A DNA stretch of 59,167 nucleotides. Source: Armatimonadota bacterium (GTDB taxonomy: Bacteria > Armatimonadota > DTGP01 > JAHWJO01). The position numbers and the translations under genes are program-made. This document shows, one piece after another, positions 1-12,846 of this stretch. Below the pieces are notes generated by a model that saw only the letters and a list, made by a program, of their open reading frames with translations, did not search any database and was not told the DNA's origin. The stretch spans positions 1 through 59,167 of the forward strand of contig JBBRGS010000001.1 in assembly GCA_038240635.1 (NCBI GenBank). Reading direction: 5' to 3'. Each line of letters opens with the position of its first letter. Positions within the stretch are counted from its first letter, which is position 1.

Positions 1-590
1 CGATACGGGCCGCGCGAGTAGTTGATCACCTGCCCGATATCGCCATTGGAGAGGATGATGAGGCGGCCGGTGTCGTCGCGGAGGCGGGTGGTGCGCATCC
101 CGGTCTCCTCCACGACGCCCAGGTTTCCGCCGATGCTGACGACATCGCCCACGGCGAACTGGTCCTCCAGCAGCAGGAGGAAGCCCGTCACCACATCCTT
201 CACCAGTTTCTGCGCGCCAAACCCAATGGCGACCCCCGCGACCCCGGCGGTAGCCAGCAGCGACGACGGATTGAGGCCCAGGGCGTTCAGGACCATCACC
301 AGCACGATGAACCAGAGCGTGTACAGGAGGCAGCTGCGCGCCACGCCCTGAAGCGTGATGAGCCGATTGGCGGTATGGGGACGGGAATCGGCTTCGCGGA
401 GGATGAAGGGACGGAAGGCGCGCCGCAGGGTGAAGGTGATGAGCGCACGCCCCACGAGGAAGACAACGAGCGCGCCCAGAACCCCGGCGCCCACACTGAG
501 GAGCTGGGCGCTCCACGCTTCCAGGGAGGCGCGGCCGAGCGGCAGGCCCCACAGGTCGAGGAGGGCGTTCAGTGAAGAGGAGAACGGCAT
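1..590 (-). CDS. Small-conductance mechanosensitive channel (MscS family), N-terminal ~196 codons; the rest of the gene lies beyond the window start
   Basis: Absent from the ORF track because it runs off the edge. Reverse translation from the ATG (rc of 588-590) gives MPFSSSLNALLDLWGLPLGRASLEAW..., TM helices, then GFGAQKLVKDVVTGFLLLLEDQFAVGDVVSIGGNLGVVEETGMRTTRLRDDTGRLIILSNGDIGQVINYSRGPY, the MscS pore-helix/beta-domain signature. Confidence 0.85.
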   Translation of the reverse strand, partial: MPFSSSLNALLDLWGLPLGRASLEAWSAQLLSVGAGVLGALVVFLVGRALITFTLRRAFRPFILREADSRPHTANRLITLQGVARSCLLYTLWFIVLVMVLNALGLNPSSLLATAGVAGVAIGFGAQKLVKDVVTGFLLLLEDQFAVGDVVSIGGNLGVVEETGMRTTRLRDDTGRLIILSNGDIGQVINYSRGPY

Positions 591-710
591 GATGAGGGAG
601 GAGAGAGAGGGGAGATCAGGCCCCCCGGCGAGACCCCGCTGCGGGTGGACAGGATACGGGCGTGGAAACTCGGAATGCGGCGCCTATGATCGAGGAGCGA
701 AGCGGGGAGA

Positions 711-1316
711 TTACGGCGGTTGGCTCTGTATCCATTCCACGCCGCGATGAAACGAGTGGAATATCCGGCAATTCATGGTTTTGAGGAAGGCGACCAGGTC
801 TGGGTCGCTGAAGTCTTTGGAGTTTCGGTTCAAAAAGCAGTTTGAGGCCGCATCGGAGGAGGAGAGGCGCCCCGTTACAGCGGCGAACACAAGAGCATCC
901 TGTGGCGCCAGGCCATACCGGGCCTGATACTGAAGAGAAGAGAGCAGATGGGCCGCTTCCAGGGGGAGAACTTCCGCCACTGAAACAAGTCTCTGAAGGG
1001 TGGATGCCATTCGGCTCCTTTCTTCCTGAACAGTCTCAATCAGAAATCCCGTCACCTGATTCAGTGCGGTGGAATGCTTTTGAAACGCTTCTGATCTCAG
1101 TAATTGCGAGAATTCCTGAGAGAGCTCAGAGGCAAGACGGGTTCGACTTTTCCAGCGCCGAATCAGAGTTTCATAAGGTTCGATGAAACAGTAAGCCGGG
1201 ACCTTCAAATTCAGCCGTCCCGACTCCGCGTGGCGGAGCAGGGTTTCACAGTCCGGGCGCTGTTCCTGCAACAGGGCGAGTTCCAGGACGAAGTTGGTTT
1301 CCACATAGACATCCAT
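711..1316 (-). CDS. PIN-like nuclease domain protein (201 aa) with a helical insertion; second gene of a two-gene cassette
   Basis: ORF track. Motifs VYVETNFVLE (N-terminal acidic strand), QDALVFAAV and FLNRNSKDF resemble PIN-type nucleases. Only a 5-nt gap to the upstream ORF 1322..1795. Assignment is by motif recall only. Confidence 0.55.
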   Translation of the reverse strand: MDVYVETNFVLELALLQEQRPDCETLLRHAESGRLNLKVPAYCFIEPYETLIRRWKSRTRLASELSQEFSQLLRSEAFQKHSTALNQVTGFLIETVQEERSRMASTLQRLVSVAEVLPLEAAHLLSSLQYQARYGLAPQDALVFAAVTGRLSSSDAASNCFLNRNSKDFSDPDLVAFLKTMNCRIFHSFHRGVEWIQSQPP

Positions 1317-1321
1317 GGAGA

Positions 1322-1795
1322 TCAGGCCGCCCGGTCCAGCTCAACCCGGCCTCCGCGCAACGCCTCAAATAACCCGGTTGCTTTGAGCCACTGATCCTGG
1401 GGATTCATCGGCCCGGCGACGGCTTCCCCCTGGGTCATCCGGCTGAACCATGTAGTGAGGAACATCTCAAAACTGTAGCCTGTCAGTTCGGCGGGCGCGA
1501 TCCCGAGTTCCCGATAAAACGGTTCGAGAAAAGGCCGGGGGTCCATCTCGTCCGTCGGTTCCAGAGGAAAGGGAGCCCCCGGTTCCCGTTTCCAGAAATA
1601 AAAACGGTCGGGCAGCGCCAGCAGGAAGTAAGGAGCGCCGGGGAGCGAGCCGTGTTCTTCCAGATTGGTTCGATACTGGCGGGCCCACTCCCGCGTCGCG
1701 CCGGATTTATCCTTCACCTCAACCGCAAGGATGAGGCGGCCCTGGCTGTCATGGATCATCAGGTCGGCATTTTTCATGGAGCTATTATACCTCAA
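1322..1795 (-). CDS. Hypothetical protein with a PD-(D/E)XK-like nuclease core (157 aa; alternative start at 1777); first gene of the cassette
   Basis: ORF track. MIHDSQGRLILAVEVKDK gives a D...E-V-K arrangement typical of restriction-endonuclease-fold proteins. No other domain recognised. Confidence 0.45.
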   Translation of the reverse strand: MRYNSSMKNADLMIHDSQGRLILAVEVKDKSGATREWARQYRTNLEEHGSLPGAPYFLLALPDRFYFWKREPGAPFPLEPTDEMDPRPFLEPFYRELGIAPAELTGYSFEMFLTTWFSRMTQGEAVAGPMNPQDQWLKATGLFEALRGGRVELDRAA

Positions 1796-1828
1796 CCGTT
1801 CCGCTCAGTCCGTCGCGTCGCGCTCCCA

Positions 1829-2075
1829 GGGTGATGAGCCGATTGGCGGTGTGCGGCCGGGAGTCGGCTTTGCGGAGGATGAAGGGGCGGAAGGCTCGCC
1901 GCAGGGTGAAGGTGATGAGCGCGCGCCCAATGAGGAAGACGACGAGCGCGCCGAGCAGCCCGGCTCCAACGTTGAGGAGCTGGACGCTCCACGCTTCCAG
2001 AGAGGCGCGACTGAGCGGCAGGCCCCACAGGTTTACAACGAGGCGAGGGACAGATGTCGCAATGGGGGAAGGCAT
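1829..2075 (-). pseudogene. Truncated duplicate of the mscS 5' end (start codon plus ~80 codons)
   Basis: ORF 1785..2075(-), MPSPIATSVPRLVVNLWGLPLSRASLEAWSVQLLNVGAGLLGALVVFLIGRALITFTLRRAFRPFILRKADSRPHTANRLITL, aligns with the N-terminus of the intact gene at 352-590. Nucleotide identity is roughly 80-85% by eye, and similarity is lost after ...ANRLITL. Confidence 0.85.
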
Positions 2076-2335
2076 GAAAGGGAATGAAGGGGGATGAAGG
2101 CGGGATAGGATGGGATAAGGCGGAGCTGAAAGGGATTGAGCCGGATTTGGCGGAGCGACTCGCTCATGTTCCTTTCGGTCTGGAGGGAGGGAACCCTTCG
2201 CGGACGAGGCTGCCCCCGGTCTGCGGGAATCGTTCGCGCCATACTTGTTATACTGTGGAACGCGAGGCGGCGCGCCTTCCTCCTCCTCCTGTCTTCAATT
2301 ATTGATCCCTGGCCCACAGAAAGAGTCTTTCCTCC

Positions 2336-5857
<3,522 letters not shown>

Positions 5858-5868
5858 GAGGCGTTCGT

Positions 5869-6132
5869 ATGTCCCTGCAGCAAAAGACTCTGACCTCAGA
5901 AGAAGCGGCCCGCCTGGGTGATGAACTCTATGAGCGGAAGGTGCTGCCGTCGGTGACAGACGAGCAACACGGTCTGGTCGCCGCGATTGACCTCTCCTCC
6001 GGGGAATTTGCGCTGGCGGAGACAGCCCTCGAAGCGTCAGAACAGTTGCGCGCACGCTTCCCCGGGACGGACGTTTGGTTCGTGAGAGTCGGCCAACACG
6101 CTCTGCATCGGATCGGGGCCGCAGAATGTTGA
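5869..6132 (+). CDS. Small DUF5678-like protein (87 aa), partner of the downstream aspartic protease
   Basis: In-frame ATG at 5869 within ORF 5701..6132. The AGGAG RBS overlaps the metH stop codon (TAGGAG). Sequence ...HGLVAAIDLSSGEFALAETALEASEQLRARFPGTDVWFVRVG resembles DUF5678-type small proteins. Overlaps the next gene by 7 nt (ATGTTGA). Confidence 0.6.
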   Translation: MSLQQKTLTSEEAARLGDELYERKVLPSVTDEQHGLVAAIDLSSGEFALAETALEASEQLRARFPGTDVWFVRVGQHALHRIGAAEC

Positions 6133-6482
6133 AAGGTTCTGTCAACGCCTTTCGTGAGGCGACACTTCAGGTGAACCTCCGAGGCGTGAACGATCTAACC
6201 GTGGAGTTGGTGGTGGATACAGGATTTACCGGCTACCTCACGCTGACCTCAGATCAGATCGTCGCTCTTGGCTGCTCACGAATTGGCCGAAGTCGCGTCA
6301 TGTTGGCCGACGGCAGCGAAGAGATATTCACCCTTTTTGCGGTTATCGCTAACTGGGATGGCCTGCCGCGGACGGTGGAAGCGTATGAAATGACCTCCCC
6401 TCCCCTACTCGGAATGACTATGATGTACGGCCATCATCTCCACATCCACATTGTTGACGGCGGTGAAGCGCTTCTTACCTGA
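6126..6482 (+). CDS. Retropepsin-like (clan AA) aspartic protease, 118 aa
   Basis: In-frame ATG at 6126 in ORF 6075..6482. Catalytic VVDTGFTGYLTL (D-T-G) motif and a size typical of bacterial single-domain retropepsin-like proteases. Confidence 0.7.
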   Translation: MLKGSVNAFREATLQVNLRGVNDLTVELVVDTGFTGYLTLTSDQIVALGCSRIGRSRVMLADGSEEIFTLFAVIANWDGLPRTVEAYEMTSPPLLGMTMMYGHHLHIHIVDGGEALLT

Positions 6483-6552
6483 CCGTCTTGTCAACTTTGC
6501 GCCTGCCAGAACAGAACAATGTCTTAAAATGCGAAAATGCTCAGGTACGGGA

Positions 6553-6797
6553 GGAACCGGGCTGGGGAGGATGCGCCGACGATCCGGGAGTTGTTTGGGC
6601 AGAAGTATCGCGGCAGCCGGTACAGTTTCGGCTACCCGGCGTGCCCGGACCTGGAGGAGCAGGCGAAGGTGTTCGAGGCGCTGCGCCCGGAGCGGATCGG
6701 GGTGGCCCTCTCCGACGAGTTCATGCTGGAGCCGGAGCAGACGACCAGCGCGATCATCGTTCACCATCCGCAGGCGAAATACTTCACGCTGGATTGA
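6553..6797 (+). pseudogene. Displaced copy 2 of the metH 3' end (last ~80 codons)
   Basis: ORF 6537..6797 reads ...GEDAPTIRELFGQKYRGSRYSFGYPACPDLEEQAKVFEALRPERIGVALSDEFMLEPEQTTSAIIVHHPQAKYFTLD. This is near-identical to metH 5608-5857, with a few mostly synonymous changes and a TGA stop instead of TAG. Confidence 0.9.
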
Positions 6798-6826
6798 GGC
6801 TGACCCGCAGCCGTGTATACTGAAGT

Positions 6827-7300
6827 ATGAGTCCTCGAGTCTACCTGGAAACCACAATTCCCAGCTACCTCGCCGCATGGCCGAGCCGTGACCTCATCAT
6901 TGCCGCCCATCAGCAGATGACGCAGGAATGGTGGAGACATCGTCGTAATGAGTTCGATCTATACGCCTCACAGATCGTTCTCCAGGAGGCCAGTGTGGGA
7001 GACCCGGAGGCCGCGCCTCGGCGACTGAGTTTTCTGAAAAATATACCACTCCTTGAACAGAGTGCGGAAGCCGTGGCGCTGGCAAAAGTGTTGCTCCGGC
7101 AAGCGCCCCTGCCTGAAAAAGCAACCCTGGATGCTCTCCATATCGCCATCGCCGTGGTCAGTGGTATGCACTATCTCATCACCTGGAATTGCGCGCACAT
7201 CGCTAACGCGACTCTGCGCAGTCAAATTGAAACTATTTGCCGTTCGCAAGGCTACGAGCCGCCGGTGATCTGCACTCCTGAAGAACTTATGGAGGGGTAA
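6827..7300 (+). CDS. PIN-domain (VapC-like) protein, 157 aa
   Basis: ORF track. Motifs VYLETTIPSYL, DALHIAIAVV and LITWNCAHIAN match PIN-fold toxin families. Followed after 4 nt by a 67-aa ORF. Confidence 0.65.
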   Translation: MSPRVYLETTIPSYLAAWPSRDLIIAAHQQMTQEWWRHRRNEFDLYASQIVLQEASVGDPEAAPRRLSFLKNIPLLEQSAEAVALAKVLLRQAPLPEKATLDALHIAIAVVSGMHYLITWNCAHIANATLRSQIETICRSQGYEPPVICTPEELMEG

Positions 7301-7304
7301 TCTG

Positions 7305-7508
7305 ATGGGGCGAGACACGATTGTCGAGGAAGTGCGTCAGAATCGTGAAGCGTACGCGGAGCGTTTCAACTTCGACCTTCAGGCCATTCATCTTGACCTG
7401 AAGGAGCAGGAAGAGAAAAGCGGACGCCAGATCGTTTCTCTGCCGCCACGGCGGGTGAAACCAACGGATCTGGATTTAGCGCAGAAACATGAAGAGGAAG
7501 CCGTTTGA
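7305..7508 (+). CDS. Small charged protein (67 aa), putative antitoxin partner of the PIN protein
   Basis: ORF track. Tight spacing behind the PIN gene and a helical, charged composition. No family recognised. Confidence 0.45.
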
Positions 7509-7515
7509 CCTTACT

Positions 7516-7793
7516 CTGGACGGCATGAAGGTGGTCGAGGAGCGGTTCGGGAGCGGGCAGATGCCGCCGCCGTTCATGTTGCGGTCGGCGGAGGTGATGA
7601 AGGCGTCATGACCGGGACCATGATGAGGGAACCGGTGGAGACCTCACGGGGGAAGAGCGGACGAAGGTCTTCAAGGCGCTGCGGCCGGAGCGGATCGGGG
7701 TAGCGCTCTCCGACGAGCGCATGCGGGAGCCGGAGCAGACGACCCGCGCGACCCTTATCCACCATCCGCAGCGACGTACTTCACGCTCGACGG
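7516..7793 (+). pseudogene. Mosaic, internally deleted remnant of the metH 3' half (copy 3)
   Basis: Three collinear blocks match metH: 7516-7607 matches 4376-4468, 7608-7660 matches 4892-4948, and 7661-7793 matches 5723-5857. Frame is not maintained. Confidence 0.8.
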
Positions 7794-7859
7794 ATCGGGT
7801 ATCATGGCTGTTGATCTCGTGCATGCCCTGAGCGGAGAAGCGAAAAAAGGTGGAGACTA

Positions 7860-8231
7860 ATGGACAGGAGCGCCAGGGAGACATCGGGAGTGATCCGATC
7901 CGACCGGGGGCTGATCGTCGCCGGAACCCGGATCACTCTGTACGATGTGCTTGACTATCTCAATGCGGGATGGCCTCCCAAACTCCTCGGAGACCGCCTG
8001 AACCTCACTTCTGAACAGACTCAGGCGGCTCTGGAGTACATCCGCGACCACACGGTGGAACTGGAAACCGAGTACCGACAGGTCCTACACGACGCGGAAG
8101 AGAGCCGTCACTATTGGGAGACCCGTTATCCCGACAGGCGGAACGTGTTGGAGTCTTCGTCGCCATTCGAACGGCGAAAGGCCCTGGAAAAGCGGCTGGC
8201 TGCGCTCGAAAAGGAAACCGTATCGCGGTGA
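7860..8231 (+). CDS. DUF433-family antitoxin-like protein (123 aa)
   Basis: ORF track. ...RGLIVAGTRITLYDVLDYLNAGWPPKLLGDRLNLTSEQTQAALEYI is the DUF433 helix-turn-helix-like core. GTGA overlap with the next gene. Confidence 0.75.
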   Translation: MDRSARETSGVIRSDRGLIVAGTRITLYDVLDYLNAGWPPKLLGDRLNLTSEQTQAALEYIRDHTVELETEYRQVLHDAEESRHYWETRYPDRRNVLESSSPFERRKALEKRLAALEKETVSR

Positions 8232-8623
8232 TCCGTGTTCTGGTGGACCACAATATGGAGGGGCAGGCGCTTCTCCTGTGGGGCGCCCTCGCCGCAGAAG
8301 GATGGCTTGCTCTCCTTCCCGTTCCGCTCCGCTCCTTTGGCGACGTGGGTCTGTCGTTCGACACCAGCGACCGGGAGGTCTGGCGGTTCGCTCAGGAGCG
8401 CGAAATGGTTCTCCTCACCGCAAATCGAAGTCTGAAAGGTGTGGACTCTCTGGAGCGAACCCTGAGGGAAGAAGTGGATTCGGAATCCCTGCCTGTACTC
8501 ACCGTCGGGCAGCCGGAACGTATGGAGGAACGGGAGTATCGCCAGGCGTGTGCGGTCCGTCTGATGGAGATATTCCTGGATTTGGACACGTATCGGGGAG
8601 TGGGCCGTCTCTACCTCCCATGA
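8228..8623 (+). CDS. DUF5615-family (PIN-like/Mut7-C-like) toxin-like protein (131 aa)
   Basis: GTG at 8228 is in frame within ORF 8114..8623. VIRVLVDHNMEG...DREVWRFAQEREMVLLTANR is typical of the DUF5615 partners of DUF433. Confidence 0.65.
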   Translation: MIRVLVDHNMEGQALLLWGALAAEGWLALLPVPLRSFGDVGLSFDTSDREVWRFAQEREMVLLTANRSLKGVDSLERTLREEVDSESLPVLTVGQPERMEEREYRQACAVRLMEIFLDLDTYRGVGRLYLP

Positions 8624-8655
8624 AGGGTCCGCAGTTTCCCCGCCAGGGGATTCCA

Positions 8656-8762
8656 AGCGGATCGGCGTGGCGCTCTCCGTCGAGTTCATGCGAGAGCCGG
8701 AGCCGACGACCCGCGCGACCCTCATCCACCATCCGCAGGCGAAGGACTTCACACTCGACGGA
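8656..8762 (+). pseudogene. Most decayed remnant of the metH 3' end (copy 4)
   Basis: agcggatcggcgtggcgctctccgtcgagttcatgcgagagccggagccgacgacccgcgcgaccctcatccaccatccgcaggcgaaggacttcacactcgacgga aligns with metH ~5750-5857 and shares derived positions with copy 3. Confidence 0.75.
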
Positions 8763-8774
8763 GGGCTGGAGTGG

Positions 8775-8825
8775 AAATTGAAAACAGGCGTCCGGGAGGG
8801 AGTGTATCCCCTGCCCGGACGCCTG
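8775..8825 (-). terminator. Intrinsic terminator downstream of the fasciclin gene
   Basis: Perfect 12-bp stem caggcgtccggg (8785-8796) / cccggacgcctg (8814-8825) with a 17-nt loop. On the minus strand it is followed by TTTTCAATTT. Confidence 0.55.
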
Positions 8826-8851
8826 AATGAACCGTGTGGAAGCGGCTCAGA

Positions 8852-9364
8852 TTACTTCATGTGGGGCATAAGCACGGTGTCCACCACGTGGATGACGCCG
8901 TTGGTCGCCATGATGTCGGCCTTCACGACTTTCGCGTTGCCGACGTATACTTTGCCCTTCTTCACGCGGATCGGCACCGATTGCCCGTTCACCGTCTTCG
9001 CGGAGTGGAGTTTCACCACCTCCGCCGCCGTCACTTTGCCCGGCACCACATGGTAGGTGAGGACCGCCGTCAGCATCGCCTTGTTCGCCAGCAGCGCGTT
9101 CAGTTTCGCTTTCGGGATTTTGGCGAAGGCCGCGTCGGTCGGAGCGAAGACCGTGAACGGCCCTGTCCCCTTGAGCGTATCCACCAGACCGGCGGCCTTC
9201 ACGGCGGTGACGAGGGTTTTGAACTGGCCCGCTCCGACCGCGGTGTCCACGATGTCCTTTTCGGCGGCGCGAGCGGGGAGAATGGCGAAGGCGGTGAGGG
9301 CGACGGCGCCGGCGACCAGGGATCGTCGAAGCAGGTTGGCGCCAGGGGCGGTTGCGGAAGTCAT
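8852..9364 (-). CDS. Secreted fasciclin (FAS1) domain protein, 170 aa
   Basis: Internal ATG (rc of 9362-9364) of ORF 8852..9823, preceded by AAGGAG. Signal peptide, then [13 protein letters not shown] and [11 protein letters not shown], the FAS1 signatures. Confidence 0.85.
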
Positions 9365-9459
9365 TGGAACTCCTTTAAGAGCGGGGTGAGGGGGTGAAAG
9401 GGGCCGCCGGGATAGATGGTGAGGCGGCCCTAAGCGTTGGAAAAGGCTGCGATGTTTGG

Positions 9460-9555
9460 GTGACGCGGTGGACTGGTGACGCGGTGGACTGGTGACGCGG
9501 TAGACTGGTGACGCGGTAGACTGGTGACGCGGTGGACTGGTTACGCGGTTTGCCA
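9460..9555. repeat. 16-bp tandem repeat, 5 copies plus a diverged founder copy overlapping the DUF378 stop codon
   Basis: The unit gtgacgcggt(g/a)gactg occurs at 9460, 9476, 9492, 9508 and 9524. The sixth unit, gttacgcggtttgcca (9540-9555), contains the TAA stop (rc of 9541-9543) and the last codons of the gene. Confidence 0.9.
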
Positions 9556-9750
9556 GCGGTGCTGGATCGCCTTCCAGGTGATGACCTGATAGACCGCGGA
9601 GAGGCCGACCAGCCCGTAAACGATGCGGCTGAGAATGCTCATGGAGCCGAAGAGCGTTGCCACGAGATCGAAGTTGAAGAAGCCGACCAGGCCCCAGTTG
9701 AGGCCGCCGATGGCCACGAGGACCGCCGCGATGACATCGAAGTTTTTCAT
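9541..9750 (-). CDS. DUF378 small membrane protein, 69 aa
   Basis: Internal ATG (rc of 9748-9750) of ORF 9541..10005. [35 protein letters not shown]... has two TM helices and the GGLNWGLVG motif. Confidence 0.8.
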
Positions 9751-11382: not shown

Positions 11383-12609
11383 CTACAGGTTGTGAACCGT
11401 GATCGTGCCCCGCATGGAGACCGGGTCCATCGTGAAGGTTCCGGTGGCGCCGCCATTGGAGTCGGGGGTCGGCTCCATCGTCGCTTTGCTGATGAGGATT
11501 TGGGCGGAGTCGCCGGCCAGCCCCTTGATGGTCACGTCGCCACTCGTCGCAATCCAGAGCCGTTGTGTGGTCGTGCCGCCGGAGACCGTGGCTTCAATGT
11601 AATTAACGATGGCCGAGTTGAGGCTCCCATCGTTGATGTGGAAGGTCTGGCCCACGACCAGGGGGGCGCCGAAGGAGACCAGCGACACCGAGATGGCGCG
11701 GGTGCGGTTGACATTGCCCGGACACTGCGCCCCCACCAGGGTGAGGTCGTAGAGGCCGACGCTGGGTCGGTTGTTCAGGCCACCGGCCACAGTATCGGAG
11801 CTGAAGTAGGAGGTGTCGGCGTTGGTTCCGGCGGGGGAGCCGAAGACCGCTTCCAGGAGACCGCCGCCGCACGCGACAGGAAGCGTGGTGCCGCCGGTCG
11901 TTCCACCTGTGGTGCCGCCGGTCGTTCCGCCTGTAGTGCCGCCTGTGGTTCCACCCGTCGTTCCACCCGTCGTTCCACCCGTCGTGCCGCCTGTGGTTCC
12001 GCCTGTGGTTCCACCCGTCGTGCCGCCTGTGGTTCCACCCGTCGTTCCACCGGTCGTTCCGCCGGTCGTTCCGCCGGTCGTTCCGCCTGTGGTGCCGCCG
12101 GTGACATTGGTAACGCCGGAGGTCAGAGAGCCGGTGTAGGTCTCAGAGCCGTAATGCATCGTGTACGCGCCGCCGCCGGACGCTCCGGGCAGCGTTCCCG
12201 TGATGCTCACCGGAATCTCCGTACCGAGGATGTTGACCGACCCCGACACACTGTAGGCGCCGTTGCTCACGGTGACGCTTCCGGCCAGCGCTCCCACGCC
12301 GAGGGCGACACTTCCCGACTGCTGCGGCCGAGCCGAGAGCGCGCGCGACGCCACGGAGGCCTCGATGGCGTCGGTTCCCGTTACGGTCAGCGTTCCGGCC
12401 ATCTGGTTGCCCAGGGCGTTCAGGTTGAGGATGGCCGTGCGTCCGCCGTTCAGGGAGGCGGAGCCCGTGTAGCGCCCGTTGGTGTTGCGGGAGAGGGTGG
12501 GCGCGGGCACATCATTGCCGCCGCCGCAGCCAGGGAGCAGCGCGACCAATGGAACAGCGCACAGGAGGAGAAGCGATGCCGCCCGAAGTTTCGACCCAAA
12601 ACGTTGCAT
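11383..12609 (-). CDS. Lipoprotein with a central (GGTT)n repeat, 408 aa, function unknown
   Basis: ORF track. Signal peptide plus lipobox LLPGC. About 19 consecutive GGTT tetrapeptides. Flanking Gly/Ser/Thr-rich beta-type sequence. Confidence 0.7.
   Translation of the reverse strand: MQRFGSKLRAASLLLLCAVPLVALLPGCGGGNDVPAPTLSRNTNGRYTGSASLNGGRTAILNLNALGNQMAGTLTVTGTDAIEASVASRALSARPQQSGSVALGVGALAGSVTVSNGAYSVSGSVNILGTEIPVSITGTLPGASGGGAYTMHYGSETYTGSLTSGVTNVTGGTTGGTTGGTTGGTTGGTTGGTTGGTTGGTTGGTTGGTTGGTTGGTTGGTTGGTTGGTTGGTTGGTTGGTTLPVACGGGLLEAVFGSPAGTNADTSYFSSDTVAGGLNNRPSVGLYDLTLVGAQCPGNVNRTRAISVSLVSFGAPLVVGQTFHINDGSLNSAIVNYIEATVSGGTTTQRLWIATSGDVTIKGLAGDSAQILISKATMEPTPDSNGGATGTFTMDPVSMRGTITVHNL
11894..12103 (-). 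repeat. 12-bp coding tandem repeat (about 17-19 units) encoding GGTT
   Basis: The units ggtgccgccggt / cgttccacc(t/c)gt alternate throughout the interval. The VVPP repeat ORF on the plus strand is its antisense image. Confidence 0.9.
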
Positions 12610-12846
12610 GAAGTCCCTTTCAATGGGAGTGGAGCGAGGTTTTCTGTCGGATCAGGAGCGGTCGGCGTTCATGCCAACGCGCACCTCATTCCGACAGGGG
12701 TGGAGGGAACGACGGAAACCACACTGAAGAAGCCCCCGACTTTTCAGTGTGGCGCCGCCCCTCCCCCGGAGTGGATCGGCTGGCCCCATTGCGGGAAGGC
12801 GACGGGGGCGTTCCGAGTTTGACAGGTAGGACAGGTAGGACAGGCG

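Follow-up and report, generated by a model that had tools for sequence, protein, structure and literature searches.

What are the copies of a gene end that stand one after another behind the gene itself, and from whose gene do they come? The question is raised by a 59,167-nucleotide stretch of contig JBBRGS010000001.1 of an Armatimonadota bacterium (the window, to whose positions coordinates refer unless another contig is named; the genome is called G000). Behind the stop codon of its intact metH gene, three two-gene cassettes follow each other, all on the metH strand and with a copy of the metH 3′ end after each one. Every insert consists only of a toxin-antitoxin (TA)-like gene pair, with no transposase or integrase inside. 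The four copies of the metH 3′ end are numbered 1 to 4, copy 1 being the end of the working gene. On balance, it is rather probable that small TA cassettes arrived one after another directly behind the stop codon, and that copies 3 and 4 are what they left of the metH 3′ end of this very lineage, scars with no function. The locus comprises:

2336-5857, + strand: metH, an intact open reading frame for a cobalamin-dependent methionine synthase of 1173 aa, with all five MetH Pfam domains.
5605-5857, + strand: copy 1, the last ~250 nt of the working metH, ending ...TTSAIIVHHPQAKYFTLD, with stop codon TAG.
5869-6482, + strand: cassette 1, an 87-aa gene (5869-6132) overlapping a gene for a 118-aa clan-AA aspartic-protease-like protein (6126-6482; TIGR03698, E 8.5e-10, under the family cut-off).
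6553-6797, + strand: copy 2, a remnant of metH ~5605-5857 with its frame intact and stop codon TGA, 95.8% identical to copy 1.
6827-7508, + strand: cassette 2, a weakly PIN-like 157-aa gene (6827-7300; Pfam PIN, E 0.024, a weak match) and its 67-aa partner (7305-7508).
7516-7794, + strand: copy 3 as a whole, made of three blocks of metH (A, B and C).
7516-7607, + strand: block A of copy 3, metH 4376-4467 (B12-binding cap motif), with 9 differences.
7599-7660, + strand: block B of copy 3, metH 4886-4948 (linker region), overlapping A and C at microhomology junctions.
7651-7794, + strand: block C of copy 3, metH 5713-5857, with a 1-nt deletion near 7771 and GGA in place of the stop codon.
7860-8623, + strand: cassette 3, a DUF433 gene (7860-8231; PF04255, E 1e-7) and a DUF5615-like gene (8228-8623; PF18480, E 2.6e-4).
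8656-8762, + strand: copy 4, a remnant corresponding to metH 5751-5857, whose identity with the end of copy 3 is 89%; GGA replaces the stop codon.
8787-8822, no strand assigned: inverted repeat GGCGTCCGGG...CCCGGACGCC, read from the sequence, between copy 4 and the fasciclin gene.
8852-9364, − strand: convergent fasciclin gene (PF02469, E 2e-43).

Copy 4 is followed by the original downstream flank, that is, by the fasciclin gene and the inverted repeat, which is probably the original shared terminator of metH. The metH-end repeats flanking each cassette span 107 to 1,482 bp, and are thus direct target copies longer than 30 bp.

A sequence-only reading of this locus had proposed that copies 3 and 4 share derived states missing from copies 1 and 2, and in a site-by-site table every state that it quoted was present. 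Copies 3 and 4 read ACC CGC GCG ACC CT(T/C) ATC CAC, versus AC(T/C) (TCG/AGC) GCG ATC ATC GT(C/T) CAC in copies 1 and 2, and terminate in CTC GAC GGA versus CTG GAT T(AG/GA). Over the last 107 nt, copies 1 and 2 differ at 7 positions, copy 1 differs from either copy 3 or copy 4 at 21, copy 2 differs from either of them at 17, and copies 3 and 4 differ from each other at 12. Relative to copy 2, copies 3 and 4 have 11 identical changes in common, besides 6 private to copy 3 and 6 private to copy 4.

The shared set contains 4 synonymous changes, 5 replacements and 1 stop loss. This composition (4 synonymous of 10) does not depart from neutrality (P 0.30), while it departs from the purifying pattern (P 0.006) given by the comparison of G000 with G001, a genome of the same family, over the corresponding stretch, where there are 5 synonymous changes to 1 conservative. 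The shared replacements include an Arg at an invariant hydrophobic L/I/M site and another Arg at an S/N/D/T site. The stop codon has become GGA in both copies; copy 3 is frameshifted in addition, and the frame of copy 4 stays open for more than 100 codons beyond the metH end, across the terminator.

Concerning the lineage from which these sequences come, the family-level relatives compared were G001, the sole genome of the same family in the collection, and contigs L087, L088 and L090. At seven sites, copies 1 and 2 have the same base, which is found in none of these relatives (the G001 copies, L087, L088 and L090); the codons giving DEFML in place of EEFQI, and Thr in place of Ser, are among them. 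Six of these seven G000-specific bases are also present in copies 3 and 4, so a distant donor is not indicated. At the seventh diagnostic site (GCG, 5767) and at AAG (5839), copies 3 and 4 match the relatives, and these two look like older, 'fossil' synonymous states of the G000 lineage. Copy 2, which represents an 'allele B' (FEAL, ACC AGC, GTT, TGA), is intermediate: it has the GCG Ala codon at 5738-5739 in common with copy 3, and ACC at 5806, the xGC codon at 5807-5809 and the xGA stop codon in common with copies 3 and 4. The diagnostic bases in copies 3 and 4, together with the intermediate copy 2, argue that the copies form a ladder inside one lineage, from copy 1 to copy 2 and from there to copies 3 and 4.

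The metH loci of G001, L087, L088 and L090 are likewise occupied, and no strain-level empty site with a single repeat copy was found among the relatives examined. Gene pairs like cassette 1 follow metH remnants in G001 and L088. In more distant lineages, a single metH end was present at 79 of 80 metagenome loci, and a metH array at 1 of the 80. The MetH ends of named source that come nearest belong to Acidobacteriota, at ~57%, and do not place G000.

Several features of the relatives deserve description on their own. On L025 (G001 contig C675, positions 1-4300), four or five cassettes stand behind the metH end with a remnant after each; one is an unknown pair, another RelB/ParE and a third an aspartic-protease pair homologous to cassette 1, and there are also two small coiled-coil-like genes; the last remnant is devoid of the final 75 codons of metH. 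On metagenome contig L088 (807-930), at least five tandem copies of GGAAGGAGCTGGATGCTTCC come directly after the stop codon of the metH remnant. For the Ser of ...TTSA..., the copies use either TCG or AGC (window 5806-5809 and 6746-6749; L025, L087, L088); AGC is tied to the TGA stop codon in three genomes, and to GTT in G000 and G001. This polymorphism crosses a family-level distance, and there is no route between the two codons by single Ser-keeping steps.

The distribution of changes along copy 3 bears on the history of the shared states. Changes found only in copy 3 are fewer in its last 107 nt (6/107) than in the rest of the copy (26/193), a difference that is marginal (P 0.049). When shared and private changes are taken together, the last 107 nt (17/107) agree with the rest of the copy (P 0.61). 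Besides, a homologue of cassette 3 lies on Logan contig L090 directly behind a natural metH end, and the L090 junction, TGA followed by ACTGGGTATAAT, is homologous to the window junction, GGA followed by TCGGGTATCAT. Considered together, the neutral type of the shared set, the comparison of change counts and the L090 junction make it most likely, as judged from the sequences, that copies 3 and 4 are sister pseudogenes, both remnants flanking cassette 3 having had a common pseudogene ancestor. The most economical route to the shared decay would be gene conversion between these two remnants, the alternative being the duplication of an already decayed end; the L090 junction seems to favour gene conversion over plain duplication. 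The remnants are without a function of their own, but provide homology for recombination within the array.

The alternative that survives best, although an unlikely one, is that class 3/4 is a natural metH allele, either the end of another donor or the ancestral functional end of this lineage, with only L>R, the stop loss and the like as later decay. The occurrence of such an end elsewhere was examined in 268 distinct natural MetH C-termini, taken from 57 genome loci, 80 metagenome loci and 145 database proteins. At the FM[L]EPE site, these ends have L (211), I (31), M (24) or W (2), and R in none; at the TT[S]A site, S (206), N (29), D (23), T (9) or V (1), and again R in none. The other residues of class 3/4 occur in a few natural ends (T in 1, L in 3, I in 12), and the string ATLI in 0 of 268. 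A chimeric metH query with the class 3/4 C-terminus was run against 5.8 billion proteins, scoring the last 42 residues: class 3/4 words were in none of the 27 candidates, and the best match was the window's own metH. The same words were absent from the proteins of 645-2054 aa among the 5.8 billion, and class 3/4 states were found in 0 of the 120 best short MetH C-terminal proteins. A codon-degenerate pattern for TRATLIHHPQ gave 0 matches in JGI metagenome contigs, and a pattern for ATLIHHPQ was found in 0 of 400 other genomes of the phylum, occurring only at window positions 7748 and 8715. The search for orthologs ending in ATLIHHPQAK(D/Y)FTLDG, by which the lineage of the older allele was to be recognized, has thus yielded no metH carrier in any of these collections, and the idea that the second allele class came from different donor lineages is not supported, since its states are in no natural metH searched. 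Among the short MetH C-terminal proteins, those on long ENA contigs (P0083, P0089), considered as remnants in other phyla, turned out to be frameshift-fragmented metH in long-read assemblies, and P0036 turned out to be a contig-edge fragment.

Some observations speak for the natural allele, and several of them weigh at the same time against a common pseudogene ancestry. The shared changes are skewed 8:1 towards G/C (AT>GC) and, besides the 4 synonymous ones, three of the five shared replacements (I>T, I>L, V>I) are at naturally variable positions, so part of the shared set could be a real older allele. The junction between stop codon and cassette 3 would be an inherited one, and the homologous junction of L090 implies that the end of copy 3 had at one time been that of an ordinary gene, moving together with cassette 3. 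Sampling of the family is very thin, with a single related genome and a few short contigs, which makes absence from databases weak evidence regarding a recent ancestor. A clock comparison from which the order of cassettes 2 and 3 was to be read, using block A alone versus the last 107 nt, gave P 0.29 and 0.21, and neither gene conversion nor duplication of a decayed end was directly observed. A natural allele is also favoured by the difference between copies 1 and 2, which shows that allelic replacement of the gene end does occur here; replacement of the ancestral gene end, another suggestion of the sequence-only reading, is plausible for this pair of copies, but class 3/4 as a natural end is not supported. 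Both the combination of states and either Arg are absent from the 268 natural ends, and the wider searches were negative too; the G000-specific bases at six of the seven diagnostic sites leave no place for a distant donor; L>R and the stop loss would have had to arise identically and in parallel in both copies (P ~0.02 by a rough estimate); and the frame of copy 4 continues through the terminator. Returning to the shared pseudogene ancestry, class 3/4 would be a mixture of a few fossil synonymous states with, for the rest, pseudogene decay common to both copies, and not the natural allele of another donor lineage.

Copy 3 raises the additional question of how much of metH was present at this junction. 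The alignment of 5858-9000 to metH (2336-5857) was run with blastn, and block A (90.2% identity, E 1.6e-31) and block B (82.5%, E 5e-12) were recovered over the extents listed above, as was block C over 7651-7790, equivalent to metH 5713-5853 (82.3%, E 2.5e-35). Copy 2 was aligned over 6559-6795 to metH 5620-5855 (95.8%) and copy 4 over 8656-8758 to metH 5751-5853 (83.5%, E 1e-26); every remaining match had E >0.005. An independent repeat search of the window recovered identical blocks, which together with the E-values rules out that the matches are spurious. So, the proposed collinearity of copy 3 with three separate metH blocks was borne out: they are in the same order and orientation, and span metH 4376-5857, that is, 1,482 bp.

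Both gaps of copy 3 sit at imperfect direct repeats of 11-16 nt of the parent metH, ATGAAAGCCTC / ATGGAACGCGTG at the A/B junction and GGAAGAGCGGGCCAAAC / GGAGGAGCAGTCGAAGG at the B/C junction, and in each case copy 3 is a hybrid of the two. Block A, which falls in a highly conserved motif, the B12 cap, shows versus the working metH 6 radical replacements (G>E, L>R, Q>P, L>P, V>M and Q>R) and 3 synonymous changes. On account of this proportion in a conserved motif, block A is read as neutral decay of the G000 sequence itself, not as a foreign functional allele. A comparable mosaic remnant is present in G001, where a B12-domain piece (DIGKNLVDI) is joined to a piece of the C-terminal domain. 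These three facts, i.e., the gaps at direct repeats, the decay of block A and the similar mosaic of G001, support the earlier suggestion of an arm of once at least ~1.5 kb that has since lost internal segments, and the simplest reading would be an arm of at least 1,482 bp later deprived of ~420 and ~770 bp. It is quite unlikely that the mosaic goes back to a single event, in which the template was switched at microhomologies in the course of insertion (in the manner of microhomology-mediated break-induced replication, MMBIR), rather than to later deletions. The location of both junctions at microhomologies and the similar mosaic in G001 copy 5 would fit such an event, but the blocks strictly keep the order of metH and share one orientation, and deletion between short direct repeats in non-functional DNA is a simpler process.

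The order of events may be pictured as follows. With the entry of cassette 2, 1.48 kb or more of the resident gene end would have been displaced, giving rise to copy 3. This remnant would have decayed and lost ~420 bp and ~770 bp by microhomology deletions. The remnants flanking cassette 3 would then have come from one decayed sequence, either by gene conversion or by duplication of the decayed end when cassette 3 was placed, and copies 3 and 4 would have diverged by ~11% thereafter. Cassette 1 would have been the last to arrive, displacing the then-functional 'allele B' end, now copy 2, and leaving a slightly different end on the working gene.

Concerning the route of entry, the left homology boundaries do vary between copies, as had been claimed (~5605-5621 for copy 2, 4367-4376 for copy 3 and 5750 for copy 4, in metH positions), and the right ends of the remnants in the window are all at the metH stop codon. 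From this variation, the sequence-only reading had concluded that homologous recombination fits better than a fixed att core, and this stands only in part: the boundaries are variable and there is no recombinase in the window, but across relatives the boundaries cluster. Four left boundaries, those of G000 copy 2, G001 copy 4 and two in L087, involving three cassette types in three genomes, fall within 5598-5630, where the right truncations of G001 copy 5 and L090 also lie; two further left boundaries, behind different cassettes, are at 5543-5546, and other remnant boundaries at 5780 and 5798. The arms of the aspartic-protease cassette start at 5546, ~5605 and ~5618 in three genomes. The cluster may mark a hot spot of recombination or else a cryptic site. 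At several other loci, most differences between the repeat copies are at third codon positions (by codon position, mscS 4/2/17, C19 1/1/6 and C50 2/0/5), which implies that one repeat copy there is a foreign functional allele and favours a homology-based entry.

There is little likelihood that a site-specific recombinase acts in trans on an att site at the metH end and carries the cassettes along as passengers without an integrase of their own, with the remnants being attR-type sequences, by an accretion of the kind known from cis-mobilizable elements (CIME). It can be said for it that each cassette begins within a few nt of the metH stop codon, that the boundaries cluster as described, four cases at 5598-5630 and two at 5543-5546, and that four tyrosine recombinase genes (PF00589) are encoded elsewhere in the genome, on contigs C26, C79, C91 and C147. 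It is opposed by the spread of boundaries in the window (5605, 4376, 5750) and outside that range (5780, 5798), by arms of up to 1.5 kb, by the lack of a conserved motif or att-like site at the cassette ends across 28 repeat pairs, by the missing recombinase in the window, and by the use of more than 25 different genes as targets. An integron cassette array was also rejected as an explanation, as the units between cassettes are metH coding remnants, not imperfect palindromes of the attC type, and no integrase is adjacent.

Two sequence features of the boundaries may be added. The cluster at 5598-5630 surrounds a G-rich stretch, CTGGGG(C/A)T(G/C)G(G/C)(C/G)GGGGAGGAC (metH; L025, L087, L088, L090). 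Three cassette families start 2-4 nt past the metH stop codon with (C/T)NGGGTATAAT, in the window as GGGTATCAT at 7795-7805 and in relatives at ~1547-1560 and ~2527-2540 of L025, ~564-577 of L087 and ~50-61 of L090. This cassette start looks like a −10 promoter box, in which case the −35 box would fall inside the metH end.

The last alternative, parallel decay, which the sequence-only reading had named for the case that no natural metH carried the states of copies 3 and 4, is practically excluded even though no natural carrier was found, since in 200,000 trials with 17 changes placed at random and independently in each copy the identical shared changes numbered 7 at most, with ~1 expected, versus the 11 observed, and shared pseudogene ancestry takes its place.

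The metH array is not an isolated case in its genome. When the genome was compared with itself, at least 25 more loci came to light in which the end of a host gene recurs over 80-330 bp at a distance of 0.7-3.5 kb, with small genes between; they are on contigs C11, C13, C16, C19, C26, C50, C52, C56, C69, C101, C213, C219, C276 and others. Ten cargo proteins were tested, and they corresponded to PIN (six), a DUF3368 domain (weak match), ParE, DUF433 and DUF5615. The end of lepA is present in three copies, with a DUF433/DUF5615 pair, and a uvrA-like end also in three, with ParE and VapC pairs. In the uvrA-like array (C213, 3847-5950), the two remnants share 9 states versus the working copy, a ~10-nt indel included; no comparable sharing of states between remnants was seen in the three-copy array of lepA.

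Other repeats were noted in the window. The 5′ end of mscS is duplicated (352-556 / 1828-2032) around a two-gene nuclease-like cassette, with the mainly third-position differences given above. A 16-nt unit (GGTGACGCGGTGGACT) occurs six times in tandem right behind the end of a DUF378 gene, at 9443-9565. A long run of 12-nt repeats (GGTCGTTCCACC-like) occupies 11860-12135, within the overlapping open reading frames 11383-12609 (−) and 11392-12822 (+), and probably encodes a repetitive Gly/Thr-rich protein segment.

Among known systems, the closest described phenomenon that the metH array resembles would be insertion with long target duplication. This has been described for restriction-modification gene complexes (Nobusato et al. 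2000, Gene 259:99; Furuta et al. 2010, PMC2853133), in which the start or stop of the adjacent gene is frequently included in the repeats, and the mechanism is unknown (PMC2853133). The likeness consists in a small selfish module without its own transposase or integrase, placed between long direct target repeats of variable length. The differences are that the cargo here is a TA pair, that three events are stacked at one gene end, that one metH arm reaches at least 1.48 kb, and that the present finding concerns the later evolution of the repeats (deletion, decay and shared ancestry).

In CIME accretion of the ICESt1/ICESt3 type, short fixed att cores at a gene 3′ end are made by a tyrosine recombinase. 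The metH array is similar to it in the serial stacking behind a gene end, in that each unit is bounded by a copy of the end, and in that the inner units are without recombinase; it is unlike it in having repeats of 107 to 1,482 bp with differing left ends and no adjacent recombinase. Campbell-type insertion-duplication and homology-facilitated illegitimate recombination, the latter reportedly dealt with in transformable bacteria by de Vries and Wackernagel in 2002, require host recombination only; the homologous segment is directly duplicated around the insert, and one copy may be donor-derived. Such a donor-derived copy would fit the third-position-biased differences seen at several loci. To our knowledge, however, these are laboratory phenomena that have not been described as building natural arrays, and alone they leave unexplained that copies 3 and 4 share their decay to the last codon. 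Finally, nearby direct repeats can evolve in concert by gene conversion. The sharing of derived non-functional states by two 107-nt repeats 967 bp apart is in line with this, with the difference from documented cases that conversion is here deduced from the pattern, no tract boundary or intermediate having been seen.

It is tempting to combine these elements, although the resulting picture is a tentative one that we hold with considerable doubt. TA cassettes would be recombinase-free mobile units that enter by gene ends through host recombination, as at the 25 or more loci of this genome, and their scars would evolve in concert and could serve as landing pads and as allele reservoirs for the working gene. 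The reason would be that a crossover between scars deletes an addictive cassette, and only non-crossover gene conversion survives. If this were true, concerted scar evolution would have become visible for the first time in copies 3 and 4. The finding also corrects the idea of an exotic donor allele: the scars are the lineage's own sequence, one of them at least 1.5 kb at the start, and two with a common pseudogene past. Its wider value is that it constrains how integrase-less TA cassettes stack behind housekeeping genes. Whichever mechanism is considered, be it Campbell-type insertion, homology-facilitated illegitimate recombination, a recombinase acting in trans or template switching, it must explain very long arms, boundaries that are variable and yet clustered, and scars that can be homogenised.

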